A stretch of 55,445 nucleotides of DNA, the filler included, from Streblomastix strix (Eukaryota): assembly GCA_008636045.1 (NCBI GenBank). It is 2 parts of 2 records of this genome, joined end to end, with 100 filler letters (N's around TTAATTAATTAA, not from the genome) between each part and the next. Parts side by side here need not be neighbours in the genome. Positions count along the whole stretch, not along the records: positions 1 to 27,675 come from SNRW01000139.1; 1 more part is not named here. One strand, given 5' to 3'. This document shows, piece by piece, positions 2,703 to 45,627 of this stretch. The notes beneath the pieces are model-generated. The model was not told where the DNA came from. It worked only from the letters and a program-made list of their open reading frames with translations, and made no database searches. Position numbers and translations under genes: made by a program. Numbering within the stretch: the first letter of the stretch is position 1; each line of letters opens with the position of its first letter.

Positions 2703-4227
2703 ATGAAGGATGTAAATATTGTAGATGGAGATATATTTATAGATAAAGATTATAGTTAATTAAAATTTAATGAATAAGAAATTATCGATGAATTTGCAAT
2801 GAGGTATATACAAAGAGATAAATAATTTGACATTTCTCAAAGTGATATTAAGATTGAAATGTCTTAATAAACATGTACATTTCTCTGTAATTGATTGAAA
2901 AGATTGGAAATTCATATTTATGCATAAAAATTTAAGAAAGAAATTATAATCATTGCATTATTTGAGTTTATTAATAGCTTGATTAAGATAGATTGTTTTG
3001 ATGAGGAGATCATTAATGATGTCAATTAATGAATCAGAACTTTGAATACTCTCACAGAATCTGCTAATTAACACTTCGATTCATAACGAGAAAGATATAA
3101 GAATGAAATGACAAATCCTTATATATTGTAAGAAATCATAAGAGATAATTATCCTGAAAAAAATAAAGAAGTAGTTATGAAATAATTTGATAAAACTAAG
3201 AGTGATGACAATATATCTGATAGAACTTCGTCGATAAGTATGGAATCATAGAGTTCATATAGAAGTCTAAATAAAACTTACATTCATATCTCTAAAATGG
3301 ACTTATGTGATCGATTCACATTTGTTGATATTGAAATGAAGATATACAATTAAGAATATGAATGCGATGATGATATTGTAACTGATATGCTTAAGATAAT
3401 GAGAATACTTAATTAGAAGAATTTCATATTCGTAATGAAACGATATGATTCTACTGTAAAAATATGTACATTTGATATATTATCTGATGATGCAGTTTTG
3501 AAGAAGTTATGTAAAACTAAATGAAATGGATTTAGGAAGAAGAACCTAAAAATTATTGAGTTCATTTCAAGAATTTGCTGGAATATTAAGATTACGAGAC
3601 ATATCATTCATAAGTGATGATAAAGATGTATTTTCCATATTCTAAGGCTTGAAACATAAGTTAGTTAATGAAATCAATATGAATACATTATAATTGAACT
3701 TAGATTTTATTAAAGAAGTAATTGCAGCTTACGACAATTATATTTATGAATATATTCTGAACTGGATTAATTTCATTATATAATATCCTGGTGTTCAATC
3801 ATAAGTTGCTATTGAAATTCGTGGAGTATAAGGAATTTGTAAGAATACATTTACTGATGTATTATGTGATCCAATGGCTAGTTACTCTGCTAAGAATATA
3901 ACTGATATTGATGAAATAACTGGCAATTTCAACTCAGTTATTGAAAATAAATCATTGATTGTACTCAATGAATTGAAGAATTTCACGGAATAATGAGCTT
4001 TAAACAGTAATGCATTGAAATTTGTAATCACAAATTATATATATCAAATCAATAAAAAGTTCGTTGCAAGAAGAGATTCATAGAATGTAACGAATCTTAT
4101 ATTCATATCAAATAACTACTGTTCAGTAAAAATAGATGCTACTGAAAGAAGATATTTAGTTTGTTAAACTCGGGATGCTCAAAGATATAATATTGAACAC
4201 TTCGATAAGATACACCAAGTCATTATA
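2703..4227 (+). pseudogene. SF3 (D5/NrS-1-like, DUF5906-type) helicase, 3'-truncated
   Basis: Motifs YILNWINFIIQYPG, degenerate Walker A GVQGICKN, TGNFNSVIENKSLIVLNE, NLIFISNN and ATERRYLV. Internal TGA stops and frameshifts. Cut off by the MITE at 4228. Confidence 0.85.
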
Positions 4228-5044
4228 TGAGAGTGTCCATTTAGTAGAATCACTTCTTATTTTTTCATTTAAAAATTTTTAAAATAATTTTTTGAACAAT
4301 AACTGAAGTTGCAAATTTTTCGATTTGCCTCCGCTATAAAAACGAGCAAAAAATATAATTTTACTTTTTTGTCTTCATAGAAATAATATTATTATTTGAT
4401 TTTTATTAAAAATATATTTTAAAATTTTTTCAGATACATTTATGGACAATTACGATGTTTTTAGCGGCGTGCGTTCGTGAAAACAGAAAATTTTTATTTT
4501 TTCGATATTTTATTCATCACATTATTTCAAATTCATCAATTATTGTAATTTAATATATTATATATTAAAATACTTATTTTATAATTATTCAATTTAATTT
4601 ATCTCAAAAATCGAACACGTATTTTACAAAAAAATATTTAAATTGAAATTTCGCAAATAAGCATAGCTATAATTATAATTTTTATTGGTCCAATTTTTAA
4701 AAAATAAATATAAATAAAGTATTTTACAAAAAAAATAGTAATTAAGCATGAAATGGGCGGAAAAAAAGAAAAATTAAAAAAAAATCGGTTTTCACGAATG
4801 TAAGCCGCTGAAAATGTAGTTTTTGTCCTTCAATATACCTGAAAAAATTTAAAATAATATTTAAAATAAAAATAAAACAATAAGATTAGCTTTCTGCTGT
4901 TGAAAAAACATGAACATATTTTTTGCTTAATTTTTCAGAGGATGCAAATCTAAATGTTTGCAACTCCAATTTTTGTTTATAAATTTATTTTAAATTTTTT
5001 AAATTTAAAAAAAGTAGTGGGTTGTTTGTGAACGGAAACACCCA
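4228..5044. mobile_element. Non-autonomous MITE, Tc1/mariner-like
   Basis: About 260-bp imperfect inverted arms (4231-4490 vs 4785-5043), for example GTTGCAAA...GCAAAAAATAT...TTCGTGAAAAC on both. Termini GAGTGTCC / GGGTGTTTCC, flanked by TA on both sides. Non-coding AT-rich interior. Confidence 0.7.
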
Positions 5045-5046
5045 TA

Positions 5047-5504
5047 TGCGAAACGCCTACATTATCCGTAAGGTGTAGTAGTTCAATTTTTGAAGAAACT
5101 TTACCACTTGACCCATCAGTATGTCGTTGGCTCTTAGATATCATTAGTGAAGACGAACATATGATAAAGGAATCGGTGCATTTCGTATTACCTGAAAATT
5201 AATTGGTTCGGGTTGTTGCTTATACTTTTGACGTCCCTGGAGTTAAATTTAGTTTGAAGTTCAGGATGAAGGATGTTGTGGTAAGTTCTGCAATGACTTC
5301 ACATAAACATTAAATGAGATATCGATAGGGAACGTTAATATTCTGAAACTCGACGTCTAGAAAATAAATTTATTAAGGGATAGCTATAAAATATGTTTAC
5401 AAAAAATAAGAAAAATAACAAGTATTTTAGATTTGGGAGAAATAGCAAGTAAAATTATTAGTGCAGTATCAAAAGGATTAATGACTGTGTTAAATAAAAT
5501 TTGA
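5047..5504 (+). pseudogene. Viral hypothetical protein, 3' part (paralogue of 48779-49393)
   Basis: CETPTLSVRCSSSIFEETLPLDPSVCRWLLDIISEDEH...EGCCG...VLNKI* aligns with the contig B copy. The 5' part is lost at the MITE and there is one frameshift. Confidence 0.7.
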
Positions 5505-5719
5505 TGTCATTTATAAATTATTTTTATTTTTATAAAATGGACGGAGATTTGCATATGCTTGATGTTGTTTTAAATCATGATTAAGTGCTTTATGTTTCAA
5601 GTAAGTATAACACTATTGGCTTAATTAACGAAGTAAAAAATATTGAAAATTTAATAAATATAATTAATGAAGCGCCTGAACCTTATAATCGTTAAGTAAT
5701 TGATGAAATGTTAGATAAA

Positions 5720-6330
5720 AAATTAAATATTTCTGATTAAATCGATGCTTATTCGAAAACGGAAGATGATGCTCTGTTGTTATTGAAAGTTGATAAATCT
5801 GAGCTCATTTATGCATATTCGAAGACAGAAGATGATGAGATGTAAGCACTAAAATTAAATATTTCTGACTAAATCGATGCATACGCTAAATGGGAGGATG
5901 ATGCTCTGCTGTTGTTGATGGTTGATAAATAAGAGCTCATTGATGCATATTCGAAGATTGAAGCTGATGATTTGCTTGCATTAAAATTAAATATTTCTGA
6001 TTAAATCGATGCATATTCGAAGACTGAAGCCGATGACCTACTCGACGACTAATTAAATAAATCTGATTAAATTGATACTAATTCGAAAACAGAAGATGAT
6101 GTTCTGAAGTTTTTGAAGGCTGATAAATCAGAGCTCTTTGATGCATATTCAAAGACCGAAGATGATGAGACGATAGCATTAAAATTAAATATATCTGATT
6201 AAATTGATGCATACAATGAAACTGAAGTCGATTCCCTGCGCGACGATAAATTAATTATTTCTGATTAAATTGATGCATACTCTTAATAAGAAGATGATGT
6301 TCTGTTGTTATTGAAGGCTGATAAAACAGA
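5720..6330 (+). repeat. Coding tandem repeat array 1 of the fibre gene (~57-63 bp units)
   Basis: Recurrent AAATTAAATATTTCTGATTAAATCGATGCATATTCGAAGAC and GATGATGCTCTGTTGTTATTGAAG units. Confidence 0.9.
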
Positions 6331-6618
6331 ACTGGATAACTATGTCTATTTAACATCAACTCAAACGATAACAGGTTAAAAATAATTCAGAATTGTAAGT
6401 GTTTAATGCATATCGAAATTGAAAAAAAATGATGCGTCTATTCTTCTTGCAGGCGGTGATGATATGTTAGTAAGTTCATTGGTATCATAACCATAACTAT
6501 AAGAAGTACAAGATATTGCTTCAGGCAGATCAAAAGGATATATCTTTGCGACGACGGATGAGATGAATACTTGGATGGAAGATTAGGAAAACGTTACTAA
6601 ATTAGCAATAGGCGATAA

Positions 6619-6620
<2 letters not shown>

Positions 6621-6666
<46 letters not shown>
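6621..6666. repeat. (TA)23 microsatellite inside the fibre gene
   Basis: 46-nt TA tract between GDNL and MDKQVMDYW. It shifts the reading frame (codon starts change from 2 to 1 mod 3). Confidence 0.95.
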
Positions 6667-6668
<2 letters not shown>

Positions 6669-7059
6669 GGATAAATAAGTCATGGATTATTGGTAGGATG
6701 GCACAGGTATTCGAGCACTAGAAACGGAACTGCCAGAAATGAGCAACATCATGACTATTCTTGGAGCTGCTACAGGAGGAGGCAATGCAATAAATGATTT
6801 ATCAATTGACGGAAACACAATAATACTTGCGAAAAATAGTTCATTAATAAAGACTAACTATGACGAAACTATTACAGGTTAAAAGACGTTTAATACTACT
6901 ATACACTCAGTCGGAATATCAGTATAGAATTTCGATAATAATTCTGTAGTTTGTGCTGGTGGTGGTGTTAAGGTAATATATGACATTAATGCAAGCATTG
7001 ACTTTTCAAATTATTTCAATAAATCATAAATTTATTCATAAACTGAATCAGATTAAACA

Positions 7060-7800
7060 TTAAATCAAAAATTAAATATTTCCTATTAAATTGATTCATA
7101 CACTAAGACATATGATGATGCGCTGCTGTTGTTGAAGTCTGATAAAACAAAGCTAATCGATGCATATTCGAAGACTGAAGCCGATGTTCTACTCGATGAT
7201 AAATTAAATATATCCGATTAAATTGATGCATATACTAAAAGAGAAGATTATGCGTTGTTGTTGTTGAAAGCTGATAAATCAGAGCTCATTGATGCATATT
7301 CGAAGACAGAAAATGATGCTCTGTTATTATTGAAGGCTAATAAAACTTTATTGATTGATGCACATACAAATGGAGAAGCCGATAATCTGCTCAATAATAA
7401 AGCTGATTCAGGAGTTTCATATACTAAAGGAGAGGATGATGCTCTGTTGTTGTTAAAGTTTGATAAAACATAATTGATTGATTCATATACGAAAGGAGAA
7501 ACCGATAATCTGCTCAATAATAAAGCTGATTCAGGAGTTTCATATACTAAAGGAGAGGATGATGCTCTGTTGTTGTTAAAGTCTGATAAAACATAATTGA
7601 TTGATTCATATACGAAAGGAGAAGATGATGCTCTGTTGTTATTGAAGACAGATAAAACATAATTGATTGATTCATACACTAAAGGAGAAACCGATAATCT
7701 GCTCAATAATAAAGCTGATTCAGAAGTTTCATATACTAAAGGAGAAGATGATGCGTTGATATTGTTGAAGGCAAATCAATAAACAACTTATACCAAAACA
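7060..7800 (+). repeat. Coding tandem repeat array 2 of the fibre gene, with near-identical ~123-bp duplications
   Basis: GATAATCTGCTCAATAATAAAGCTGATTCAG(G/A)AGTTTCATATACTAAAGGAGA occurs three times (~7381, ~7504, ~7693). Confidence 0.9.
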
Positions 7801-8668
7801 GAAATTGATTTTTTGATATCATAAGTTGAAGTTGGTGATGTTGATTTAAGTGGATATACGACCTTAGGTACTGCATTGATAATAACAGCAAACAAGATTT
7901 TCAATAATGCTAGTAGATTCATAAGTTCTATCGATGGAATTGCAACAATTACAGGCGCATCGTTTATTAAATCAAATGCAGATGACAGTGTTGTATTATT
8001 TGGAGCTTGTGGAACAAAAACCAATCTCTGAATTTTCCAGTTCAGTTGATGATTCAAACTATGTAAAAAAAAGATGGTAATGTATGAGATATTTAAGGAA
8101 TTTTACGAAAAATGACGTTTGATTATCGATATCCTGAACCAATAGATGATGATTATATGACATTGGGCGCAGTAAAAAGCGAATTCGTTTCATCTATCTA
8201 TAGCGATTCAATTAATGGCATTCTAACAGCAACATAATTTATAAAATCAAGCAAGGATGATACATCGGTTTTATTGGCAGATGGTGGCGACCGATTATTA
8301 CCATCATTTTGAGGGATTGAAGATTTAATATCATCTGCATTTTCTGGTATGAATAGTGCAGTAATAAAATATAAATTTATTAGAATCGGAAATCTGTATA
8401 TATTTTCATTACTTGCTAATGGAAGAAATTATAACGCAAGAACTTTTAATCCTTACTACTTAGTTTAGGATAATGTTGATGATATAACATATATATAATT
8501 TCCGAATAATACTGTCGATAAAAGTTGTTATGTATCGATTATTCATTCAATTGGATTAATTTCCTTAAAATCAATAACAAACACATATATTTAATGTGCA
8601 TCTGCTACATGGTTTAAATGAAACCCTTGAAATTGTTTGGATTAATTATTTATTTTTATTGAATATAA

Positions 8669-10343
8669 ATGTCGAACGTTTATATCGATGAAGGATTGTT
8701 AGATGCTGCTGGTTTATCTGACTTCCCAGAATTATACGCGTATATCAAAGAACGTTATCCTAAACCTATTGGAGAGCTACCGCAACCTGTACCTATTGGA
8801 GACCAAACTCTGCAATAGCAGGTGAAAAATAATAACAATATTATCTATACTTCTGGAGATTCAAATGAAGAGTTCGTACAACCAGTGCCGAATACTATAA
8901 CGAAATTGGATTTGAGTTCATAATTAGAGCGATAAAGTTTCTTAGCATCCAGTGGTTCAGATCCAAAATTAATCGTTAATGGCGATAAAATTATTCTCAT
9001 AGCACCATATGCAACAACAGGTCTATTTCTGAAAGGATATTTATTCAAAAGTTATCCAGCTGAAGTAAGACCAAAATTGGGTGATTAAGAGATTGCATTA
9101 GTTGGAACCGACATATCTAATATATATAATATATTTTGCTGTATCGATTAAAATGGGCCATGTATTATAAGCTCTAGGTAGCTGCCATTAAATACTGTTC
9201 TTATGCATAATATTACATACTATAAGTAATATAAATCATCAAAGAAAATAAATTATGATGAGAATAATGACGGAAAAATAGATATTACGGATATATGGAA
9301 TGTTAATGGAAAAGGATCATTTGAAGCATAATCGTATGTCTATGAAACAGTTAAAAAATAAACAGATTTAATCGAGGCGGGAGTGTAAGGACTAAATAGA
9401 ATTAATTATTTGAACAGTGAAATTAAATTAATGGATGAACTCCCGATATATAAAGCAGATAGAGCAGCATATCTTATTAAAGATGGACCATTAATTTCAT
9501 ATAGTTTTGGAGCAAAATTGGCACAATTAGGTGCTAACTCTGATACGTAATAAACCATATATAAATTATTCTTGATAATCAGAAAAAAAAGTTCTACCAC
9601 CTAATACGAAATATATGCCTATTCATGTCGAATAACAGGAATTTTCTGCTATGTGTTTGTTCAAAGATATTTATGATAAATCGTCTGCTATTTTGATGGT
9701 CGTTAATGGATAATTAAATATGCTAGATTGTGAACTCCAAGGAACGTATATCCTTGATAACTATGCGAACAGCACAAACGCGAACGAATCAGCATGAAAT
9801 TAAGCATTATCAGAAGAACCTGACTCTTTCATCGACGAAGTAATAATAAAGCATGAAAAATAATTGGGTTAATTACCACAACCACAATATACGATAACAA
9901 ATATCTTTAATCAATTTGTAATAAATTATTTTTTACCATCATCAGCATTTAATGCGTTCTATACCGTTGATGAAAGCACTTGCAGAGTATGCGTATTCAA
10001 CCTATATTTTGAATCAAAAGGTTTGCAAGGGAGAATATAAGAAGTTGGTCGTATTCCTGATTCAGTAGTGCCTGCTAATGGTAAAAGTTTGGGCTTCCCT
10101 GCAGCAATATATAGATCTTAGAGCTGAAAATAGAATAATTTTTCTGTGAATTATTATATTGAAAATACATAATTTAAAACGCTATACTTTTAATTATCTG
10201 AATAATAATAACCAATCCCATAAAATTCAGATGATGTTTATAAATATTGTGCAAGTGGAATGAAATATTTGTGAAAAACAGCGCCAGCAACATCAACGAA
10301 AAGCGTTATTTTGGAACGAGAAAATGGTGTAGTTAATGAATGA
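8669..10343 (+). pseudogene. Second putative fibre / receptor-binding-like protein
   Basis: MSNVYIDEGLLDAAGLSDFPELY... with repeated beta-rich modules carrying YPAEVRP and IPDSVVP motifs, reminiscent of the LPxxxRP motif of phage receptor-binding domains. Several TGA stops and frameshifts. Confidence 0.5.
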
Positions 10344-10426
10344 CTTTTAACTGCACCGTGTGCATCGAGTCAAAAACTGTTATGAAAAGCTGTGGCCAAC
10401 TGGACAACTGGCCAATAATTGAGAAA
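10291..10426 (+). repeat. Intergenic iteron repeat, copy 1 (+)
   Basis: ATGAATGACTTTTAACTGCACCGTGTGCATCGAGTCAAAAACTGTTATGAAAAGCTGTGGCCAACTGGACAACTGGCCAATAATTGAGAAA. Confidence 0.9.
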
Positions 10427-10500
10427 CATTAAAAAAATAAAATCATTTATTCAAATCCAAAATAATACATATAAATTTTTATTTTTTTATAAATAAATTT

Positions 10501-10761
10501 ATGGCTACAGACATCTTTTCAAAAATCAAATAATTAGTTTAAAAAGTTTGGAAAGGTCTATAATGGGCTAATGATAACGTTTATAAACCATTCATAAAAC
10601 CATTTGCTAAACCAATACTTGGAACACTAGGTCCTGTTGGCTAAACAATAGATAAAAGTTTAGATGTTGCTAGTTCATTTCTTGATCATAGTTATGGTGC
10701 AGATAAAAATGGATAATTTAGATAAGATTTTGATACTTTAAGAAACGACGAATATTTATGA
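10501..10761 (+). CDS. Small protein with an N-terminal amphipathic helix
   Basis: Open 86-codon frame MATDIFSKIKQLVQKVWKGLQWANDNVYKPFIKPFAKPILGTLGPVG... lying between repeat copies 1 and 2. Confidence 0.65.
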
Positions 10762-10851
10762 TAAAAATTACCCATTGATATACAGAGTCGAAGAATATAA
10801 TTATAGAATCAATGAAAAACATAAGCATTAACGTTTGAAATTATAATTATT

Positions 10852-10950
10852 TTTCATAATTATTGGCCAGTTGGCCAGTTGGCCACAGCTTTTTATAAAA
10901 GTTTCTGACTCAATCCACCCAATCCACTCGGTCCATAAATATTCAATAAA
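10852..10950 (-). repeat. Intergenic iteron repeat, copy 2 (-)
   Basis: TTATTGGCCAGTTGGCCAGTTGGCCACAGCTTTTTATAAAAGTTTCTGACTC followed by variant 9-bp iterons. Confidence 0.9.
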
Positions 10951-11000
10951 TGATTTTTATTACATTGAGTATTTATTTAACTATTTCATTTTTTTATTGA

Positions 11001-12718
11001 ATGTAAAAGATGAATAGATTCTTAATGAAAGCCACATATTTACAATAAGCAGGGACGATTGAAGAAACATTATTAGGTAATGCCGTTGTTCCATTTACTA
11101 ATGACGGAGAACATCATTATTCAATCAAGGAAATCAAACCAGAATCATAAATGTCAGCATTATTTGATAAGGAGATAATCATAAGTTTATCAGATACTGA
11201 CCACGACATCACATAGATATAAAATTCGTTCTTGTCGGTAGTGCTAACAGCTAATATCTAACTTGATTATAAATTTGAAAAAATTGACGAATCATATAAA
11301 GACGGATTGGTTCTATTCGTAGGTCTCAAATCAGGTTCAAATCTTGTTCGCGAATATACCATATATCATAGAGGTGAAACAATTGATGGAAATCTATAGA
11401 GTAACGCAACAGCAGAGTCATTTATTTATAATACAATCAAGCCAAAAAGTGAGAAAAATAATAGAAAACATATTCATTCCCTTTATGAGAATAATCAAAA
11501 ATTTGATACTTCAGCGTGTGAAACATATATAGGTATGCGAGAGATTGAAGAGCTAATATGAAATCAAACAGTTATTCTATATACAATTCCAATACGTTTC
11601 GGAGTAAGCATTGCAGTTGATGACCTCTTGGTATTCTCTGCATTTACTGATTATCTTAATGGCTTATTTGGTGATTTAAAAATAAAATTCAAAATAAATC
11701 CTCAAACTTTCGTTTCCTGTTAAGTAAATCCAATAATTTCAATGGTTAAATATTATACAATGAATAAAGATGAGTTATTTAGTAGTTAGTAGAAGCTAAT
11801 GGATATCGATATGATGTTCAGAAATTGGAGTTTGACATTCTAATACACAAAATAATTTACATAATTAGGATGCTCTGCTGACTTGATAACAGGATTACAT
11901 GCGGAACCACTAACTGAGTCAGGATTGAAGAACTTGATATGCGACATCAAGCCCGTAACCATAAGCATAAAAAATTATGTCATTACAGAGGTCACGGCTA
12001 ATATGGCAGGTTATAAAGCTACTGATGCATGCCTTAATCGAGTCCGTTAATTCTACAGCTAACGTCCATTTGTTGTTCCTGCTCAGCGTGTGGAAGTATG
12101 GCCATTTCCAACGAGTGCCACGTTAACGGGAATACGAACATCTTAAAATATTCCTCTGTCTCACGTAACCGACTTCTGTCCTCTATTTCCAAAAGATGCA
12201 AGAGCTACGACTTGCTTTGAAAATCCTTGCTATTAGTACATGCAAGTAACAACCTGCGGAAGTAATTTCCCAGATATGCCTATGAATACTATTGACCAAT
12301 AATTCATCTAATTATAACTCAATGCGTCAATTCTTGATTTACTGTTCGAAACCACTGATGAGTTTGATGATGTTTTAACGACACCAAGAAATACAGCAAC
12401 TCGAAAACTTAATCCGCACACTGATTTAACAAGTTTTTCGATAACTCTTTAATGTGAAAGGAACAGCAACGGAGCACTAATTTTCGATGGACTAGACACT
12501 CAGAATTAAATACATCTGTCGAACTTAGAGGAGCATCAATATATCAAGGAGCAACAGATTCATACTACAATGTTGATACTGGTAGAAAAAGACTACCACT
12601 TCCGATTTTATGTACAGTTCATGATACATTTTGGTTGTTTTCACCTGCTGCGGGCGGAAGCTGAATATATGATTCAAATCATTCATTTGATGAAGTTATT
12701 GGACCACTTAGTTCATGA
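11001..12718 (+). pseudogene. Putative double jelly-roll major capsid protein
   Basis: About 570 beta-rich codons (LFVGLKSGSNLVREY...FVVPAQRVEV...CFENP...CERNSNGALIFDGLDT...VHDTFWLF). Its size and position next to the penton-like and ATPase genes fit a Polinton MCP. Two in-frame TGA and one frameshift (~12510). The fold assignment is inferred. Confidence 0.65.
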
Positions 12719-12888
12719 AAGAATGAAGTGCCTGAGTACTTTAATCCGTTTATGTTTATACATTTTTTATTTTTTTAATTTACATATATAACTAACACCT
12801 AAACATTAATATAGTTAATTAAATAGGTCATTAGTTATATTCCCATTAATGATTTTTTTCACTTATTTTATAATAGATAGCTTCAAAT

Positions 12889-13272
12889 ATGACATCAATA
12901 TATAATTTACCATATATCACTTTAACATAAAATGACGAAGTTGTAATCGGAGAAAACGCTTAAGTGAGTAGAGTTGGATTTACATTACCATACGCGTTTG
13001 TAAATTCAGATAATTAAAGAAAAATAATATTCAGCTAATGTGATTTTTCAAACTAAGGCTCCAATGAGGGCATTTCTGTTCATAGTTCAATGGTTCAAGA
13101 AGAATAATATTTCGATTAATTTGTTGGCTATTGCAATGAATAACGTGTTTATAAGCCCTACATCTAATACAACCACAACAGATATTTATATGTATGGTTC
13201 CGTTAAAATTAAGAATTATTGGATATAAATTAATAGCTAAAATTTGTTCTTGTGTTGATGCTGGAATATTGA
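12889..13272 (+). CDS. Putative minor capsid (penton, single jelly-roll) protein
   Basis: Intact 127-aa ORF directly after the MCP: LPYAFVNS...VHSSMVQE...FDQFVGYCNE...YVWFR...FVLVLMLEY*. The pattern resembles small Maverick penton proteins. Confidence 0.6.
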
Positions 13273-13683
13273 AATAACTAATATATTTTTATTTAATTTC
13301 ATTTTTTATCACTATAGAAATAGCAAATATTGAGAAATAAAATTTACGATTAGAAAAATATGCGTTAATTTCTATGATAGATACTATGAAATTCTTATTA
13401 AAGTAAGCCGAAAGAGATGGAGAAGACTTAGAGTTTAAAATAATTGATTATGAATACGAATAAGAAAGAATAATTTATGCAAAATAAAAAATGATTGAAT
13501 CGATGAAATTAATTTAACAAGAGGCCGATTTAAGAAACAATGAATCTGAAATAGTTCGTAAGGAATAAATAAAGAGATTAGAATTTAAAATGTAAGAAAA
13601 AGAAGAAAAAATAAATTAAATTAAACGATTTTAAAATATATCGTTTTATTTTTTTTAAATCTAACTTTTTATCAGTACATTAA

Positions 13684-14294
13684 ATGGAATAAGTTAAAGC
13701 TACCGCCAAGATTTCAAACTACAATTTTCGTTCCGTTGAAGGTTCATATTGTGGCTTAAAATTGCTTATTAAATTAGATGATAATTACATTAATGCAACT
13801 AAACTTTATGAATAATATGATATATGTTTCAAATAATTATAGAGGCAGACTAAATTGAAGGAATATTTAAAAGCAGAAATGAAAGAAGTTGAGCCCATGG
13901 GAATTCGCACGGGCTAGTGGATGAATGCTATTGATAAAGGGGTTGATAACGAATATAAAATAATTGAAACAAAGAGCGGTTCCTCAAGGTAAAGAAACAG
14001 CTTATGTATTAGCCGTTTAATATATAGAGGTTGATGATAAAAATTATTCAATTTTGAAAGTTCGAAGAAGAAATAAGAAATGGGTTAGCAATAAATTTAT
14101 GTAAGAATTAAATGATGCGTTGTCATATTATGATTAAGAATGTATTGCTATGACCAAAAATGAAGCAATTAAAGAATATTTAAATAAAAATATGATAGCT
14201 ATTAAATTTAAAGGAATCAAATGTATATTTAATGAAGATTTAACTGATGATGTTATAAATAAAATTAAGAAATACACAACTTGAAGACGAATGA
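13684..14294 (+). pseudogene. KilA-N domain protein (internally deleted or frameshifted)
   Basis: GSYCGLKLLIKLDDNYINATKL is the KilA-N signature. The C-terminal part (RAVPQGKETAYVL...) is in another frame. Confidence 0.75.
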
Positions 14295-14684
14295 AAGACA
14301 TTATTTATTTTATTTATGTTGAAATAAATTGGAAAGAATATTATTTGACAATAAAAAAACAATAAATTTTCATCAAAATTATAAATAGAAATGGATGAGT
14401 AGGTAGAAATTTCACTCGAGGAGGAGGTCGAAGGATAGTCTAACGGACATAAATGTTTTGAGAGCTTAAACGATTTCAAATAATTTATTTCCTAAAATTA
14501 ATAATAATTATCTAAACTATCAACATAAAAATTAAATAAATTATATAAGTTGGAAAGTTATAAATTATCAAAAAATAGAAGGTCAAGTATGTATAAGAAC
14601 TTGTGCCAAAGATCAACTGAATAGGATTGAATATAAATTAGACTAGTTTTTGGATGTTCTGAACTATTTGGTCTATGCTCTGAA

Positions 14685-14776
14685 TTGAATGACTTTATAG
14701 TGTTCCGAGTGTTCCGAGTTAGAAATTTTTTTAAAATACTGTGGCCAACTGGACAACTGGCCAATAATTGAGAAAA
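14685..14776 (+). repeat. Intergenic iteron repeat, copy 3 (+)
   Basis: TGAATGACTTTATAGTGTTCCGAGTGTTCCGAGTTAGAAA...CTGTGGCCAACTGGACAACTGGCCAATAATTGAGAAA. Confidence 0.9.
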
Positions 14777-14789
14777 ATAAAGTCGATTA

Positions 14790-15613
14790 ATTATTCAAAT
14801 GTTGATGTTGAACTTATCCGTTTCAGATTAATTTTACAGCTATTCCACTCATTTCGTATTATACCACTAATGCTTATTGTTCAGTTAGTCGTACGTACTC
14901 ATACCATATTGTTTCTTTATCTGATGGTATAGAAAATTAATAGAAAAATTAATTAAATTTTAATCTGTTAAATGAGCCGAAGAACCATAATGAATCAAGA
15001 TTTGATTTAATTGCAGCATCTAAACCAATGATGTCCTATAAGCAAAGGAAGTATATTATTCAGGGCTATCGGTTCTTAAATAGCTTCTTCAAAAGTGTAT
15101 TATTTTTATTTTTTTAATATACTCATTGTATCATCAAATAAAACAATCGTATTAGGAAATTTTAAGTTAAAATTACCTTCTCCACTAGCACCAAAAATAT
15201 TAATTAATATATCATCTTTTGATTGTTCAGTTAGCTCTTTTTATAATTATTTTTCTTGTATCTCATCATACTCTTATTTGCAATCTATCAAATCATTCAG
15301 CATTTAATCCGCTTCGGCATATGGAATAATTTTAGTTAGAATTATAATTAAATCTTTCATCTTTTTTATAAGTTATGTCATTAATTGAGTCGCTCACGTA
15401 TATGAATAGCTTATAGCAATATTTTTTTAATTAGGTCAATTTAATTAGTACTTTGAAGATGTTGTACGTCTTACCACTTCCACGCTAACCTATCAATAAA
15501 TTTACAGAATAATATGTTAAATTTAATTCTTTATTAATATTTGTTTAAATTTCATGTTTATTAACTTTTATTTCTTTTAATATGTTATCTACTTTTTATG
15601 TTAAACTGGCCAT
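14790..15613 (-). pseudogene. A32-like (FtsK-HerA) genome-packaging ATPase
   Basis: MASLTQKVD... with Walker A NLLIGQRGSGKT, Walker B TIVLFDD, then LFKNRQ and FLCLQD. Frameshifted. Confidence 0.85.
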
Positions 15614-15654
15614 TTCTATATAATAATACATATTTTTTATCGGTGAGAAATAGA

Positions 15655-16766
15655 ATGTGAGAATTAACAGAATAAGAAATATAAAGAATAGTCAATGGGG
15701 AAGAAGCAAATGCAAGAAAGGAATTTGAAGCAGAAAGATGCAAAGGTGCAGGTGGGTAATCAGGCGCAGGTGGTGGTGGGTTGATGGAAATTGATGGAAA
15801 GGACGATGATTTCGATTATTATGAATCGCAAGCAGCAAGATAGGACAGAATGAAATCACGAGCAAAAGCGTTTAGTAAGCTACATTTTCATCCTTCAATG
15901 ATTCAAAGAACAAGAATGCATGGAGGTCCATAGTTTAGAGAGGAGGCTTGGGATGTCCTTGCTACACTTGTCGGTTATTTAAACAGAGATATTAAGAAAA
16001 TTAATAGTTTATCGCCTGCCGTTAGTGCTCAAAAATATATAAATGATAAACATTTGTGCAAACGATTTAGTGTATCAGAATAAGATTTAGATGATAATAT
16101 TGCAACACCTGATAATGCGGTTGTTGATGATAAGAAAAAGAATGCAATTTATTTAGTCGATGGTTATACAACAGCTGTAGGATTTGGAGACCCGGAACAT
16201 TAACATAAAAGAAATTGGAAGAAAAAATATTATTCAGATTTTAATAATTTAGAACGAGCAGCATTTGATGCATAATTAAAACAATAAGGAATAAAAGGCG
16301 GTCCTTTCATGAAATGGCTATCAATAACTAAGTTGTATAAAGTAAGAGAAATAAAACTACATAGTTTCAGAGCATTCACCGTCGATGCCAAAAAATTCAT
16401 GGACCAAAATGGAGTCGCATAATTGCAAATGGCTACCAAACAACAAATAATGGAACCTGCTTAGAATACTGTATTTTTTGCTCCTGCTGTAGATATATTT
16501 GAAAGATAAGACGGAAAAATAGACATATATATAATAGAAGCAATAAAACAAATGTAAAATTTGGGGATTATGAATATTTGCCACTTGATAAAAGAGTCAA
16601 TAAAAAAGAACTGCCTACAGTTATTGCTCAACTATATGCTGATAATCAGGTTGATAGTAAGATTTCATAAGCTCTTGGATAAGTTATGTAATATTATGGT
16701 GATATTTTAACACTGAGATAATAAAACATTAATGGTTATAAATTAGAAAAATATAAATTCGTTTGA
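15655..16766 (+). pseudogene. Conserved-looking viral hypothetical protein, divergent from the ATPase
   Basis: Long open frame with a Gly-rich linker and QDLDDNIATPDNAVVDDKKKNAIYLVDGY. A TGA follows the ATG directly. Confidence 0.55.
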
Positions 16767-16800
16767 ACATTATTTATTATTTATATTAATGTTTTTCATT

Positions 16801-16944
16801 TCTGGCCAGTTGTCCAGTTGGCCACAGCTTTTTATAAAAGTTTCTGACTCGGAACACTCGGAACACTCAAAAGTCATTCATAAACGATTCCATTTTCTCG
16901 TGCAAATTTCGACGATTTCGTTGTTGTTTTATGACTCAGAACAC
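16801..16944 (-). repeat. Intergenic iteron repeat, copy 4 (-)
   Basis: TGGCCAGTTGTCCAGTTGGCCACAGCTTTTTATAAAAGTTTCTGACTCGGAACACTCGGAACACTCAAAAGTCATTCAT...TTTTCTCGTGCAAATT...TTTTATGACTC. Confidence 0.9.
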
Positions 16945-17568
16945 CTATCAATCCAGTTTACTTATGTAATAATTAATTATTTTTATCTTGAATAAATGAC
17001 AGATAAATAGGGGGGTAAAACTCATAAAGACGAAGTACGCCTCCGATTGTGCCTCCGAATACGCCACAGATTCAAGCACTACCAGAGCTATTATCATTTA
17101 ATTAATCGCTTAGATAAACATAATAATAAATGACTTAAATGTAAGAATATATTGGAAGGGCACAAGCACGTGATTCTTAGCCAGTACCATAATTTTATAC
17201 TGAATAATTGCAATAGATATTAATGTAGGACTATATTATGTAAATGCAAACATGGAATTTTTAGCTATCACCTGAATTTTAAATGGAGCAACGACAATAA
17301 TAATTAATATAAATGTAGAATTTTATCACTTAGATGCAAGCACGAAATTATTAGCCATCACCAGAATTATCACCTGAACAATAACCCAAACAAGGCGAAG
17401 CTCGCGAAGTGCAGGAGGATTATCAACTGAATTTATGGCCTGAAAAATTAATTCTAAATGTTATTAGAGAATTAATGACGTTATATGACTCTGAAATATA
17501 ATGGAAAATAAATGTAAATGAATTAAGGTTTTAATTTTCATTAATTTTAGATAAAACTGGTTTAAAAA

Positions 17569-20500
17569 ATGGTAGAAACAATAGAGATATAGTTCGAAAT
17601 GTAATATTATAATCAGAACCATTTGCAAAACGAATCAGAAAGGACATTCAATAAGGCCTTCAAAACGAATAAATTATCGGTAATGCTTACGCTAAATAAT
17701 TTATGCAAGAATAGAATAACAAATAGCAAATGAACGCTTAAGACGAATAGAGCTAACAGCACAATTAATAATGGGAGCAAGTATTGGAAGATTAATGAGT
17801 CAAACATGCAAATTTGTTAAAAGAAATTAAAGAATAAAAAATAAACTTTAAGCAAAAATAAAATGGAAATGTGTTCAAAAATGTTATAGATGAAATTAAA
17901 GAATTCAATGAATCATTTAATGACAAAATTTTTAGGCCAATTGATGCTCTTAACGTCCTATAGAGTACGATTATGTTATGTGAGCCACAACTCAAATTAG
18001 AATATGAAAGAAGAATTAATTTTGAGCGAAAACGTATATAAAATTAACATATCAAATATGACCCATTTTATGTTTATACTATCAGCCTAACATAAGAATA
18101 TCATAAAAATGATTTGAAAACAATTGAAGATGTCGATGCTTATTTAGATGAAATAATTAAACGAGAATAGAAATTCGCATTCAAAATTGCATTTGATTTT
18201 GGAGTAGCTATTGAACAAGTCGATGGTTAAGAAAATGATTAATAAATAACATATAAAATTATTCATCCTCTTGAAGCCAGAACGGAGATGAGAGCACTGA
18301 CAACCATACGCACGCACTTAGATTTAGAAAATTATAAAAGATTCGTTAGAAACCACATAATTTAGATGCAAGAGAAAACCATTATGTACACCAAAGAGAA
18401 AATAGTTTGTATACATATGTTCAAACTACCACACACGTGTAGGTCGAACAAAACCATCATTATAGAAACTTATTATAAGGCAAGAGATTCGATATATTGA
18501 CCTTTAGAATAATAATTAAAATTTATGTTTCTTTCTAGCATATTCATTTATTACAATGTCAGATGTTAAAGAGGAACAATCACGTATAGCAGAAGCAAAA
18601 TGATTATTTTAAAGAATCTATGGAAAGATTATAGATGATAATTATTAAGGATTTAATTTTTCAACAGATGCAGATTAATTTATTTAGAACGAAAATTTAA
18701 ATATTAATGTACTCGCTTACGAAGAAACAACGGCAGCACTAACCGAACCATCAGTCAATTCATCAGCCAATTAAGGTAGTTATTATCTATGGAAATAATA
18801 CAGAAGAATCGAATAGAACGAATAAACTAAAAAGTTTAATGTTCTTTTAATAACTGACAAAATTAACGAATAATAAATGGCTCATGTTTTTTTTCATATA
18901 AACGATGTTGAGGCATTAACCGGTTTAAAAGATTGTTCTATTTGTGGTGCGCAGGCATATAAGACCAGAGATTCAAATTTATAACCTAAGCTAAAGAAGT
19001 ACATATAAAAATGTTAAAAAAATGTAGGAAAGATAGTAAAAAAAGTTTATTTAGAAAGATTTCCAAGACCATACGTTCCTCATATTTTGAATAATGTTAG
19101 CTATAAGTATCTTCTGGTTCAAGGTCGAATGGATAAATTCGAACCTACTCAATATTATATTTCATATGAAATTGAAACCGTTAAAATAATCTTTAATGAA
19201 TAATTAGGTGATAATTCAAACCAAATATCAATTCTAGAACGTCTTTCGATTGCAAGTATAATAAAAATAAAAAATAAAACATTAATTAAATTTATTCCAT
19301 TTATTTCGATACGCGAACAAAAGATTTTATTATCATATAGATAAAATAATTGTTAAAAGAATCCATAAAAGTTACTGATTCAAGCAAATATGAATATGAG
19401 ATGATACCACTGCATTACGAGGTGCCAGTAATTGGCTTCAATTCTTCAAAGTTTGATGTCGCATTAATTCTTAAAAATTTATACAGCGATGAATGGTAAA
19501 TAATTAAATATCTTGATAGCGGTTCAAACGCTAAATAAATCAATGTTAAACATAACATAATAGGAATCAAATTGCGATTCATAGATGCGATGATTTATTG
19601 AACAAAAATGAAATTAAAATAATTCATAAAAGATTTCACACCTAAAATAGCGTCAGCAATTCCAACCAAATTATAATTTCCATATGAATTCATCGATTAC
19701 GATAATTATAATAAAATATTGAATATTCCTTAGCCATTTCCGATTGAAGCGTTTAGAAAAACAATTAAAAATAAAAACTTAAGTCAAGAGAAATATTAAA
19801 ATTATTTATCTAATTCTTAGCATTATATAAATGGTTGGATTACCTTCGACACTATAACATTGAAGATACTCGATTAAAGATTCAGCCGTTGAATTACCTA
19901 ATTTATATGTTCTTCAATTATAAGATTGACATGTTGTAGTTCATGTCGATGTCAGCATGTGCTAATGCTATCAAATATGTCCTTGTTTATGGCGACTTCA
20001 AATTGGGTTAAGATTACTCGCCAAAAGATGATTATGCATTGTTCGTTCTAACATAAAATTTTTGAAACATTAAAGTTTAAAATTATCTGGAAAATGATAA
20101 AAAATAGAAATAGTGATACAAGCAACTACATCAAGGAATCAGATTGTGCGTTCTATAGAAAATTATTCCTATCAACAGGGTGCCAATTTTGTAAGGCACG
20201 ATTCACAAGCAAAATTCCTCCAACATTAGATAGAATCAACAACGACAGGGGCCATTCTGCAGATATCATAAAACCGTGCTGCTTATTCTGCAATAAATTT
20301 AAGTCAAATAAGGATGAAAATTTAACAAGATTAGTAATGCAATTAAAAAATTTCTGTCTGACAAAGTCCCTACCTATGACAATAACCGATGAAGAAATTC
20401 ATAAGATTTTACGTTCTGGAATCACTGGTGGATTATCATAACTCATGCATCGCTATAACGTGGCAGGTGAAACTAAATTAAATTAATTAAAATTTATTAA

Positions 20501-21935
20501 TGGAATGGTCATTAGTTAAGACACAGACCACACAATGACCCATCTTTTAACACTAGATTTCAACTGTTAATATCCCAACGTTATGAGCTCAGAGCCGCAT
20601 AAGTTCATCAAATATACAGGAAATAAATTATATATGGCGGGATAAATATTGAATAAAATTACTGATAAATTAGCAGCTATAAATTTAATTTATAATCCTC
20701 TACAATTTAGTGACGTTGAAAGAATGCCGTTATTTATCGCAATTGTTAAAGGACACATCGACGAATAACATATAAACGATTTCATTAATTTTCTTCCGAT
20801 TTTAAGAAACATAAATATTAAGACTGATTTAAAAACGTTAGGTTCATATATATATAATCTACTAATGAAAAATAATATGTATCATGACAAAATTGAACGA
20901 AAATTAACAAATTTATCATCAACTCATGGATAATTTATGTCCCTCAATAATTATTATTTGTGGCTTCTCATTGATGATTTTCATTTCATTATTGACGATA
21001 TTTAATATGTTATAACATTCACGAAGCATGACAGATTCAATCCATTTGTTAAGGAATTTATGAATCAAAGAATATAAGCAATAAAAAGAAAATATAAAGG
21101 AAAATAATAGTTCTATAAATTAGCTATGAACTCAAGCTATGGAAGTGATGGGATGAATTAATAAAAATATTCGCAAACGAAATTGTTGAGCTCTGATAGG
21201 ACATGGTTGTCTCATCTCTAAGGTTCATTCGTTAATGATTAATAATTAAAAGAGGATTTATTTTCAGTTTAATTTAATGCTGAGAGTTGAAACTGCAACA
21301 CTTGCCTACATTCTGCGTATTTCGTGTCAGATAATAGCAAATATTGGTATATAAATTTTATCTATAATTCTATTGTTAAAACTTTCGATATGTACAAGAG
21401 GCACTATATTTGTGGTGATACTGATTCTATGACATGGGCCATCAGTGGCAACTCCAGCGTTGAAGAGGGACATAGACAGAAATTTAATTATTTAATCAAG
21501 GACTAGAAATTTTTCGATGAAAATTATCCTTTTTTCTTCGGATAATTTAAACAATTATTGGGAGTGAGTTATGAGGCAGAAGGAACGGCTTGCATTGCTC
21601 TAGCTCCAAAAATTCATTACATTTATAATCCTCTTCCAAATGAGAATGAAAAGGATTACAATTATTGTTTGAAAGGAATAATATAAAAATAAAATGTTCA
21701 ATTAAATGATGAAGCATTTAAATAATCATTAAATGGTTAATAAATTTGTGCTCAAAATATTATTCTCGGTTAAAGAAATAAATAAATGTCAAAAATATAA
21801 ATAAATAAAGTTGGTTTAACATCAATTCATAATAAAATGGTTGTTCTTGAAAATTAAAGCTGTGCTCCATTCCTGTATTTTAACAGATAACAATTGAGTT
21901 CAGAAAATTATATAATTGCCAATGATGAGCACTGA
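17569..21935 (+). pseudogene. Protein-primed family B DNA polymerase (pPolB)
   Basis: Exonuclease motifs YEIET, VIGFNSSKFD and YNIED; FPYEF; ITGGLS; polymerase motifs LDFNCQYP (A), KLAMNSSYG (B) and GDTDS (C). Frameshifts are present and the start is approximate. Confidence 0.92.
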
Positions 21936-21946
21936 TGATAGGCACT

Positions 21947-22077
21947 AACGAAAAGCATTGAATAAGAGCGATAAATTGGAATAGGTTATGAATGACTTTT
22001 AAGTGTTCCGAGTGTTCCGAGTGTTCCGAGTCAAAAACTTTTATAAAAAGCTATGGCCAACTGGACAACTGGCCAGA
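21947..22077 (+). repeat. Intergenic iteron repeat, copy 5 (+), three iterons
   Basis: ATGAATGACTTTTA(AGTGTTCCG)3AGTCAAAAACTTTTATAAAAAGCTATGGCCAACTGGACAACTGGCCA. Confidence 0.9.
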
Positions 22078-22159
22078 TTGTTAGGTCGGTCTTCCGATCT
22101 CTGCCTGCGGCTGATTTTATTGGTGAATTGAATATAAATTGTTTTTTTTTAAGAAATAA

Positions 22160-23571
22160 ATGTAAAACGAAAATAGTTTATATGAGGAGATACTTAGGAC
22201 TTTTGCTGATGATAAATATCAAAGAGAGGAAAATGATTTTGAAGTATAATAAGATATCGATGATAAAGCGTATAAAGTTCATTATAAAATGACTCTGAGT
22301 TCATAAAAAATATCTTTAAAATTGTAAAGAAGAAAAAATTGATGTTATTGTAGAAAAAGCTGATGAAATAATTATTGGAAAACGAACAATAGCGGGTTGG
22401 TACTGTTATTATATTTCAATTTAATAGCAATTTGTACCAACAAAATAAAATAAATAAAAAAATAAATAAATAGACAAAGATGTTCAAGATTCTGTGATTC
22501 GGTCTAAAGACACATCCTCACCCGTTTAAGGTGGTGATATGGAAAATATGTCCTATTATCCCTTCAAAACAAAATTAAAATTATTTGGAAAAATCAATAA
22601 ATAAAAAATATATTTATAATTAAAAAGATGTATAAGTACAGATGAAAGATTATAAATTAAAACCATTATAAAGACTACAACGACCATATTTCTCTCCAAA
22701 GTTAGGGAGCTGGGATATAGATATAGTCTTTTCATTCGATTAATATTTATAGGAAACCAATGATGAAAATGATGATGCAATCTTTGAATAGAACGAAATA
22801 AGATAGCATACAGAATAGCATTGAAGAAAAACAAATTTATATCTATTTTGCATAAACATTAATACAAAATATTTAGTAGTATATCCATTGATTTATAAAT
22901 CAGCTGCATAAGTAGTTGGGTAATTGTAAAAAATAATAAAAAAATTATTACGTAAATAATATTCGTGGTGATGGAGAGAAAGGATTTAATGGTTCTTATT
23001 TTGCTTTATTTTGTTCTGAGAATTAGATTATTGGATATTTCACTGAATCAAAATTTACTAATTATAATCGAGTTGTCGATTCAGTGATTCGTACAATAAG
23101 GAATGCATTTGGTTATAAAATTAATTAATTTTCAACGAATAAATAAATATAAATAGTCGTTGATATATACAATGATACTCGATATCTAGCGTTTCAAAAT
23201 AAATATAGCTAATATTAAGTTCAATTGTCAAGAGATTTCGAAGGATTGTATATATTTGTTCATAAATGAAGAAATTTGAGCGACAATTAGTAAGATAAAG
23301 ATTACAAGGAATATTATCATTTAAGGTTGGAAATATAATAATTGTACATCTTGATTTCTAAAAAACATAATAAAATTTTATGAAATAAAGAAAAAATTTC
23401 AATTAATTAGCGGAATTCATTAAATATGTGATTGATAATTTCATATACCGATTATTGAATCATTCTTATGAAACTAACATAATAAAAATACCTTAATATT
23501 ATTGTAAAAATGTAAGTGAAAATTAGGAATCACTACCAGAATATTATGCTACAGAATTTAAATTTAGATGA
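22160..23571 (+). pseudogene. Retroviral-like (rve) Maverick integrase
   Basis: RPYFSPKLGSWDID...YLFCININTKYLVVYP...IRGDGEKGF...NRVVDSVIRTIRN...IYNDT. TGA stops and frameshifts. Confidence 0.85.
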
Positions 23572-23621
23572 AACAAAATTTTTAATTATTATTATTTTTT
23601 CAATTTTTTATTTAAATTAAA

Positions 23622-23956
23622 ATGACAGATAATCAAGCCATCAATGATACAACATAATCGGAGTCTGCATAAATGGATCCATAAAATTTAGCGAAATAAG
23701 GAAGATCAAAGAAATATACCGATAAAGAATAGGCAACGATTGCTGCTAGAGAACAGCGCAAAAATGCAAGAAATAGATACAATTAAATTAAACAGATTAT
23801 GTTTCTAAAGTTAATGATATGCAATTATTAATCATTAAAGAACTTAAAAAAAATTATCGAGAATATTAATGATTTGTTAACAATTAACGAATTTATTAAA
23901 AAAATGAACCTGTAAAAAACATTAACGAAGATGCAAATGATGATATAGACGTTTGA
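23622..23956 (+). pseudogene. Small basic putative DNA-binding protein
   Basis: MTDNQAIN...KQGRSKKYTDKEQATIAAREQRKNARNRY, a GRPKKY-like motif followed by a basic helix. Frameshifted in A-runs. Confidence 0.45.
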
Positions 23957-23993
23957 AATAAACAATTTATTTTTATTATTTATTTTTCTCACT

Positions 23994-24164
23994 TCTGGCC
24001 ATTTGTCCAGTTGGCCACAGCTTTTTAAAAAAGTTTCTGACTCGGAACACTTGGAACATTTAAACGTCATTCATTACCTATTACATTTTCTCGTGCAAAT
24101 TCCATAAATTTCATCGATGTTTTATGACTCGGAACACTCGGAACACTATAAACGTTCAATAAAT
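23994..24164 (-). repeat. Intergenic iteron repeat, copy 6 (-), with a second iteron block
   Basis: TGGCCATTTGTCCAGTTGGCCACAGCTTTTTAAAAAAGTTTCTGACTCGGAACACTTGGAACA...TTTTCTCGTGCAAATT...GACTCGGAACACTCGGAACAC. Confidence 0.9.
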
Positions 24165-44610: not shown

Positions 44611-45627
44611 TTCGACGAATTGTGGTATGGAGCCTAATTGAGCCAGTTTGCTTAAATGATTTTTTATTTATTTTATATACTTTTAGTTTAATATTTGGTA
44701 AATGGCAATTTGCTAAGAAGTAGTTTAATAGATATTGAGTACATCATATATTTCAAAATTCGAGATAATTATATTTTCAAAAATGATAATTAGTAATAAT
44801 TATTAATTTTTTATAAAATAGGATAATTGGTAAAGTAAAAAACAGTGATAATATCAAAATTTCATTAATTAATGTTCATCATTTCTTAGAAAAATTTTTT
44901 TTAATCATTTTTATATGAAATTAACCAATAATTATTAAAAATATTATAATGTACTATGTTATTTTTATTAAAATTTAAAAATTCATTATATTTTGTAGTT
45001 ACATTGAATTTATAATATTATATATAGTCATTCCCTGCTTTTGTAAATTTATAAATTTTTGCAAATGAATATATACTACAAAATCATTCTTTAGATAACT
45101 AATATTGAAAATTTTTCATTTTTTTTAAAAGTTTAACTTTAAATGCTTAAAAATTAAAAATTCAATATTTTCTTTAAAATAATTATTATTTAATGTTATA
45201 TTTAGCAAATATGGGTTGTAGTCAATTGAAGAGGATTAGTGCCCCACATCAAAGAAATTAAATAAATATATGCAAATAAATTATGTTAAGTAAATAAATT
45301 ATATAATTAAATTAATTTAATAAATAATACAAAGTATTGTAAGACAGAATATTCATATGAATTAAGTTAATGAATAACATGACTGATAGAGGTTAATGAA
45401 TGAATTAAAGAAGTACGTAATTGATGCTCATTATTGCGTTGCATTTTTTGTACGTATAACACTCATCGTCTTCATATAACTACATAAGTAGGTAGATGGT
45501 GTAGAGTCATGGTTTATCGTTAATGGAAACTTAATATGTGTTGATGAAATCATTGAATATTTGAACATACACAATATAAAATTTATGAAACGTGAGTGGA
45601 AAACTTCAATAGAAGAACGTAATTGGC

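Follow-up and report, generated by a model that had tools for sequence, protein, structure and literature searches.

A Polinton-like virus in the Streblomastix strix genome

We analysed a 55,445-nucleotide (nt) stretch of the Streblomastix strix genome assembly (GCA_008636045.1; hereafter the window), made of two joined parts, the first of which (positions 1 to 27,675) comes from SNRW01000139.1. At ~1–24.2 kb lies a decayed Polinton-like virus (PLV) of this termite-gut oxymonad, a member of the Metamonada group that has integrated many times in the host genome, and a second viral fragment occupies about 45.4–49.5 kb. Built into the virus is an intergenic element of ~130 bases, eight copies of which form a family-wide internal lattice. 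Here, we describe the element and its placement, present evidence for exchange between its copies, and weigh what it may do.

The identity of the locus follows from capsid homology, a PolB match to PF03175 and the use of genetic code table 6. In the window TAA and TAG encode glutamine; under the standard code merely six open reading frames (ORFs) of at least 80 amino acids (aa) are found. The available text of the published account of these viruses (Bellas et al. 2023, PMC10120064) reports 820 capsid hits in the S. strix genome and, for the Metamonada group, the same reading of TAA and TAG. Two entries of its confirmed capsid database, P0116 and P0136, are 66–80% identical to the window capsid, and its Table S3 gives a match between a member of this capsid family and the Sputnik capsid 3j26 at E 2.6e-12. 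NCBI names S. strix for 85 of 85 matches to the capsid fragment (49–91% identity), and the language-model neighbours of the window capsid are Preplasmiviricota capsids. Structure prediction for this protein was poor (predicted local distance difference test score, pLDDT, 37.7), and a fold search with that model was uninformative. The polymerase matched PF03175 at 26.8 bits (cut-off 25.8), and its protein-primed type was confirmed.

Most viral genes in the window are interrupted by stops or frameshifts. We took the virus to be an integrating one with a genome of ~25 kb; its ends (terminal inverted repeats, TIRs, and a target-site duplication) were not located, and copies 6 and 7 of the element share short flanks alone. 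Elements of the Metamonada group are ungrouped and sparsely described in the available text of a recent treatment (10.64898/2026.06.19.733378).

Eight copies of the repeat in alternating orientation

Searching the window with the repeat core TGGCCAACTGG(A/C)CAA, with up to two mismatches allowed, gave 11 matches against 0.00 expected, a number that 0 of 100 shuffles reached. The core lies at 10393 (+), 10871 (−), 14742 (+), 16810 (−), 22054 (+) and 24003 (−). In a profile search these six copies scored 94–141 bits and the best match in the reversed window 5.9 bits; the copies fit their own profile by construction. Both searches confirm what the original prediction had claimed, six repeats at these places in strictly alternating orientation. 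Pairwise identity among the six is 63–84%, while copies 7 and 8, which the profile search added to the original six and which lie in the second viral fragment, are 49–59% identical to the other six and 75% identical to each other. All eight copies lie inside viral stretches; 0 of 8 profile matches fell in non-viral sequence of the window. Copy 6, which has an additional head piece (24121–24153), is the last recognisable viral feature on that side.

Alternation of copies 1–6 (+ − + − + −) has a chance probability of 1 in 32; with three copies fixed in each orientation, 2 of the 20 possible arrangements alternate. It thus exceeds chance, though modestly. With copies 7 and 8 included, eight copies in alternation would arise by chance 1 time in 128. 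That count takes the two fragments as joined through the gene that they share (gene X), for which we infer the composite order 7+, helicase, 8−, X, fibre, 1+, 2−, 3+, 4−, 5+, 6−. Against this composite, the primase-helicase of the first element (3108–4300) is reversed, is 34–40% identical to that of the second fragment, and has no detectable repeat beside it.

Because repeats are found at tandem, convergent and divergent gene junctions alike, their orientation does not depend on the direction of transcription. The element had been predicted to lie always at a gene 3' end; this holds for copies 1–6 and fails at copy 8, and such placement is little informative in a compact viral genome with genes mostly on the + strand.

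Table 1. Copies of the repeat and viral genes in the window.
Feature	Position	Strand	Remarks
Copy 1	10294..10456	+	Mosaic; head resembles copies 7/8, tail resembles copies 2–6
Copy 2	10840..10964	−	Between amphipathic-protein gene and capsid gene
Copy 3	14683..14806	+	Between convergent genes; its first TGA ends the 14395 ORF
Copy 4	16766..16944	−	Profile match 16766–16922; long head in common with copy 6 (85% over 173 nt)
Copy 5	21946..22077	+	Three 9-bp units; shortened tail flank
Copy 6	23951..24153	−	Profile match 23951–24115; extra 9-bp array
Copy 7	45609..45776	+	Diverged subtype; second viral fragment
Copy 8	48259..48422	−	Diverged subtype; between two gene starts
Second primase-helicase	3108..4300	+	Direction relative to gene X opposite to that of the 45.8–48.1 kb helicase; no detectable repeat
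Gene X, fibre-like repeat gene, 8669 gene, 9615 gene	5046..10280	+	Upstream of copy 1
Small amphipathic-protein gene	10501..10815	+	Stop-interrupted in this copy
Major capsid protein gene, Metamonada group	11010..12718	+	Broken: one stop, one frameshift
Penton candidate, coiled-coil ORF, KilA-N gene (broken), 14395 ORF	12889..14688	+	
Packaging-ATPase-like gene	14780..15631	−	Walker A; broken
Hypothetical 15784 gene	15784..16766	+	Frameshifted; last frame ends in the TGA of the copy 4 RTTTGAA box
Q-rich ORF, then protein-primed-type PolB (broken)	16995..21935	+	
Integrase-like relic and basic-protein gene	22086..23960	+	Integrase motif by eye
Primase-helicase (DUF5906), between copies 7 and 8	45760..48114	−	Stop is the TGA of the copy 7 RTTTGAA box
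Gene X and start of fibre gene, second fragment	48779..49464	+	77% DNA identity over 535 nt to first fragment

Anatomy of the element

Each copy reads, in order, a TGAAT box, two or three 9-bp units, a central GAGTCA(A/G)A motif, a T/A tract and three 8-bp units. The 9-bp units are of the GTGTTCCGA type in copies 3–6, of the GTGCA(T/C)CGA type in copies 1, 7 and 8, and of the GTGGATTG(G/A) type in copy 2; the 8-bp units read ACTGG(C/A)CA in copies 1–6 and form a diverged set in copies 7 and 8. The distance from head to centre is 30 or 39 nt, with unit number changing in 9-bp steps. On the other strand, 78–93 nt from the centre, six of the eight copies carry an RTTTGAA box, a motif with a background frequency of 0.6 per kb per strand. 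This box contains the in-frame stops of the primase-helicase and 15784 genes and probably those of the ATPase-like and basic-protein genes as well.

Every copy is asymmetric, with ragged ends and without TIRs of its own; no target-site duplication was seen in the flanks inspected, where the ragged ends leave the limits uncertain. Across the eight copies there was no conserved fold (folding z −2.5 to +0.2, six of eight weaker than −1.2), and positions 9500–23500 gave no Rfam match, so we rejected a hairpin terminator or structured RNA. Of inverted pairing there is one 22-bp inverted pair; the only stem pair, of 6 bp, is present in six copies and in neither copy 7 nor copy 8.

Probable exchange of halves between repeats

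Copy 1 is a mosaic whose two halves resemble different subtypes. Its head matches copy 7 at 20 of 22 positions and copy 8 at 19 of 22, against 14 of 22 for copy 4, and its tail matches copy 4 at 37 of 41 positions, against 21 and 18 of 41 for copies 7 and 8 (Fisher p 2e-4 and 3e-5). We looked for further variants among contigs from four termite-gut runs (at most two samples), aligned to 9500–23500 at 80% likeness; the best run is possibly the window's own source, and runs X1 and X2 contributed 27,025 and 3,273 contigs. What follows from these data concerns 15 joints out of 442 and 12 insert rows out of 69, and depth was unable to rank the parts. The reciprocal type, a copy 5 head with a tail like that of copies 7 and 8, occurs as a loose end at 22035 in eight X1 and four X2 contigs, from two studies; by eye, 22 of 30 letters of this tail match copy 7 and as many match copy 8. 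Subtypes also vary at a single site: at the copy 2 position, the subtype is that of copy 5 in P0168 (96% translated identity), a copy 2 type in both P0039 and P0041 and, by eye, a type like copy 1 in P0080.

Copies 6 and 7 have 52 nt in common on the tail side and ~40 nt on the head side. The tail-side stretch includes like-coded C-termini of two unrelated genes: the basic-protein gene region (23922–23974) and the helicase end (45745–45794), beside copies 6 and 7, encode NEDANDDIDV and NEDINDDINI, which suggests a conversion tract that extends into coding sequence. We also considered whether copies 6 and 7 lie inside long terminal repeats. This is unsupported past 40–50 nt, as their long outer flanks do not rise above control: they score 243, and the 70 control stretches have a mean of 198 (standard deviation 37, maximum 295.5).

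Because copy 1 is mosaic, the reciprocal type exists as a loose end and subtypes vary at one site, the repeats appear, on sequence comparison, to recombine or convert one another, with the switch near the central motif and with the flanking genes mostly fixed where examined.

Several contig joints fall within repeats. Listed joints that connect opposite strands there are 10326>10934, 10360>16829 and 16881>21948, and 14669 or 14672>10335 occurs three times; a further listed joint, 10497>10862, drops the amphipathic-protein gene. The in-repeat joints have short sides of 24–53 nt where given (33–53 nt for the three opposite-strand ones), and since these sides are so short, such joints are equally explained by another repeat subtype at the same site or by rearrangement. 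Others lie away from the repeats (12701>10478, 10769>23367, 21693>13592, 17838>21079), and amplification chimeras are possible among them all. Separately, run X3 has a loose end at 22049 whose tail is of a third type (CTGCC-based units, 8-bp period), which suggests further repeat subtypes in the family.

Gene order in other viral copies

Gene order in related copies was read from NCBI gene models that fuse neighbouring genes, a source that covers copies 1 and 2 and is blind to an inverted gene. Capsid sequence was present in 159 of 173 proteins, and a window gene stood upstream of it in 37. Window order was kept in 36 of these 37 (upstream neighbour the amphipathic-protein gene in 24, the 8669 gene in 6, the 9615 gene in 5 and the fibre gene in 1), with the amphipathic-protein gene skipped in 12 of the 36. 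The odd model has the helicase upstream, on a 1622-bp contig too short for both whole genes and a repeat; one further capsid model has a WD40 host domain upstream. Among 32 models with the amphipathic-protein gene, the upstream neighbour was the 9615 gene in 17 of 17 and the downstream neighbour the capsid gene in 24 of 25, the exception being P0172 (8669 gene). The latter figure is inflated by the origin of most models in the capsid search; the amphipathic search alone (20 matches) gave 12 of 13.

Exchange with copies 3, 4 or 6 would place the ATPase-like, 15784 or basic-protein gene ahead of the capsid gene; none of these stood there in any informative model, and this absence counts against such exchange. 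Six gene models read through a repeat at the copy 2 site (P0027, P0039, P0041, P0080, P0168, P0170), and in all six the repeat, after the amphipathic-protein gene or before the capsid gene, has the orientation of copy 2. We found no tyrosine or serine recombinase match among 40 ORFs and 25 of 152 long frames, the genes being broken. The exchange of functional modules put forward in the original prediction is thus not supported at copies 1 and 2.

Wider searches found no relatives. Longer head and tail patterns of the repeat had no match in viral contigs, metagenome contigs or prokaryote genomes, and protein-based locus searches of viral contigs (capsid, ATPase, PolB) returned none; the capsid patterns were Q-rich and would miss TAA and TAG codons. 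A 15-nt pattern gave at least 120 matches in viral contigs, nearly all single, which we treated as chance and did not use.

Genes around the repeats

Among the gene labels first proposed, PolB and the capsid held up, the ATPase is plausible, KilA-N is weak in the window (E 0.034) and strong in a sister gene model (5e-9), and the integrase and penton labels are putative. Searches of Pfam, PHROGs, PDB sequences and plasmids returned nothing for the integrase-like relic, whose motif had been read by eye, and the penton candidate had no family match. The ATPase-like gene is 55% identical over 64 aa to P0086, a Joint Genome Institute (JGI) metagenome ATPase that itself has sub-threshold ATPase matches. 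P0086 was the one non-Streblomastix protein in the ATPase search, and the likeness suggests that another sample contains a related virus; the search returned no S. strix ATPase model of at least 197 aa, fused or separate. Querying representative proteins with the Q-rich ORF yielded five proteins, all of them short and unfused.

Several further features were noted along the viral stretches. A paralogue of the basic-protein gene (79% over 126 nt) lies on the minus strand at 174–298; after it comes a short motif that recurs at 22100–22121. Between the first helicase and gene X, an AT-rich foldback of ~800 bp (4251–5019) is 69% self-complementary and has no further copy in the window; it is possibly a miniature inverted-repeat transposable element (MITE) or two facing element ends. 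The fibre-like gene (5393–8030) contains 66-, 132- and 123-bp repeats broken up by a (TA)23 tract. In a diverged viral subfamily (P0034, P0065, P0068, P0074, P0079 and P0084), ~200 aa of unrelated sequence separates the 8669 gene from the capsid gene and apparently takes the place of the 9615 gene.

Outside the virus, a weak, below-cut-off Pif1-like helicase relic at 25333–25780, just beyond its edge, is possibly Helitron-derived. A host ORF of 5419 aa at 27654–43913 (−), without apparent introns and with the look of a ubiquitin-specific protease by eye, continues into a poly-Q tract as well as N gaps at 27676–27775, and a 22-bp tandem repeat (five copies, 96% matches) lies at 43799–43910, at the start of this host gene.

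What the repeat may do

We favour, at roughly even odds (about 0.5), a reading in which the repeat works like a baculovirus homologous region (hr), that is, as a protein-binding origin or enhancer whose copies are homogenised by recombination while the genes stay mostly in place. The original prediction had listed hr-like elements as an alternative, and this alternative fits best: the copies are dispersed, vary in unit number and appear to recombine, and the genes mostly keep their places where examined. Conserved spacing combined with changing unit sequence would be expected of protein binding, and replication could be the stage at which copies exchange sequence, whether by gene conversion or by crossover. 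The inner part of the terminal repeat may be the source of the element. Alternation would persist because exchange between inverted neighbours costs no genes, whereas exchange between direct neighbours would delete a cassette.

Several points weigh against this hr-like reading. The element consists mostly of direct 9-bp and 8-bp units and not of hr-type palindromes. Protein-primed replication begins at DNA ends, and an origin inside the genome would therefore depend on the primase-helicase or some other route. The reason proposed for alternation is conjecture, and six copies would alternate by chance 1 time in 32; descent from a terminal repeat draws on 40–50 nt of flank at copies 6 and 7, where the long flanks fall within controls; and the left-arm helicase of the first element has no repeat. 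The order evidence is limited to copies 1 and 2 and comes from fused gene models, and the origin or enhancer role and the binding protein are hypothetical.

The original prediction preferred recombination sites that invert or exchange cassettes, as in a shufflon; such sites would give genome isomers, with crossover at the central GAGTCA(A/G)A. This account explains the strict alternation and the central switch best, and the head/tail mosaics change over at that centre. It can also draw on the joints inside repeats (10326>10934 and 16881>21948 across strands, and the thrice-seen joint to 10335), on the opposite facing of the helicase relative to gene X in the two fragments, one flanked by copies 7 and 8, on the capsid models that skip the amphipathic-protein gene as an inverted cassette would make them do, and on copies 6 and 7, which have flanks in common on both sides, enclose different genes and adjoin like C-termini. 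Yet neighbours are kept in 36 of 37, 17 of 17 and 24 of 25 models, the two exceptions without a demonstrated break at a repeat; no recombinase matched among the frames scanned; the copies are only 49–84% identical; repeat variation by itself can account for the opposite-strand joints, whose sides are short, and other joints lie off the repeats; the two helicases are only 34–40% identical, one being without repeats; and the skipped genes are perhaps predicted introns or deletions, as in joint 10497>10862. That no ATPase-containing S. strix model of at least 197 aa was found also counts against it, as a weak point. We regard this account as doubtful, and likewise doubtful its fullest version, in which eight alternating sites derived from terminal repeats delimit seven flippable segments and produce genome isomers and helicase-for-integrase cassette swaps without a dedicated recombinase. 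Somewhat less probable is that the repeat punctuates transcription and insulates neighbouring genes, with a 3'-end or poly(A) signal on either side and a two-way TATA-like core. A gene end adjoins seven of the eight copies, copies 3 and 7 lie between convergent genes, and the RTTTGAA box of six copies contains the helicase and 15784 stops; but the box lies ~20 nt beyond the amphipathic-protein gene stop, no gene ends in it at copy 1, copy 8 stands between two gene starts, several gene junctions have no repeat, and neither a conserved hairpin nor an Rfam match was found within the limits given above.

A reading of the inward-facing pairs as remnant ends of small mobile modules (or of a MITE) that entered the viral backbone and became fixed seems improbable. 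Four such pairs do enclose units of 0.4–2.5 kb that include the integrase-like and helicase genes, and non-TIR repeats bracket replicase modules in other polisuviruses, as far as the available text describes them (10.64898/2026.10.13.758929; PMC11296320). Nevertheless, the asymmetric copies lack TIRs of their own, their ragged ends leave no target-site duplication definable, a core structural gene, the packaging-ATPase-like one, lies inside one of the pairs, subtypes differ within one pair (copies 1 and 2), and no copy occurs in the non-viral part of the window. The lattice as an artefact of assembly or amplification is far less probable still. Chimeras are common in single-cell metagenomic assemblies. 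The S. strix assembly comes from single-cell metagenomics, to go by the title of reference 42 in PMC10120064. The copies, however, differ by 16–51% and have unique flanks, six gene models on other contigs carry the same repeat at the same site, and the variant tail recurs in contigs of a second study, so that this explanation is largely refuted for the lattice, with caution retained for single joints.

Comparison with known systems

Bacterial shufflons consist of near-identical short sites in alternating orientation inside a variable gene, with an adjacent recombinase. The window repeats resemble them as short sites of alternating orientation that separate segments; they differ in being intergenic and 49–84% identical, with no recombinase found and with order conserved at copies 1 and 2. 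In the available text on Caenorhabditis elegans eri-6/7 (10.1101/2024.01.15.575659), Polinton TIRs mediate inversion of a host gene and thus likewise serve as substrates of ectopic recombination, but the rearrangement there involves a host gene and TIR remnants left by separate insertions, whereas the window repeats are internal to the virus.

Closest in descent are the Metamonada Maverick-Polinton/PLV viruses of S. strix, the same virus family with the same code; the available text on them (PMC10120064) mentions TIRs alone, whereas the window virus has internal repeats. In polisuviruses, as far as the available text goes, non-TIR internal repeats flank the primase-helicase or replication module much as copies 7 and 8 do, and in Gezel-14T the TIR repeat recurs internally (10.64898/2026.10.13.758929; PMC11296320). 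Those are single pairs round one module, whereas here one eight-copy family divides structural, packaging and replication genes. We found no description of an alternating internal lattice in a Polinton in the literature searched (figures and most subscription journals were outside the search), in agreement with the original prediction, although single replicase modules bracketed by repeats were already known.

PLVs are described as highly mosaic, with the mode of module exchange a standing question, in the available text of 10.64898/2026.10.13.758929. A recombining internal repeat family, together with ~820 capsid hits, offers a direct test bed for such exchange, and for the Metamonada group, itself poorly understood, the repeat is a first candidate for a cis-regulatory element. 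Cassettes that flip would represent a novel form of variation in viral genomes; cassettes that stay put would mean an hr-like element in a virus class without a described example in the literature searched.

The comparison that we favour is with the baculovirus hrs, which in the available text of PMC4758234 are origins and enhancers of variable unit number that flank variable regions and are linked to recombination. The window repeat is likewise dispersed, intergenic, variable in unit number and linked to recombination. In the large circular genomes of baculoviruses, the hrs form arrays of imperfect palindromes of ~30 bp, whereas the window element is built of asymmetric 9-bp and 8-bp direct units, alternates strictly and belongs to an integrating virus of ~25 kb. 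By analogy, then, the repeat may be hr-like in its working without being a member of the hrs.

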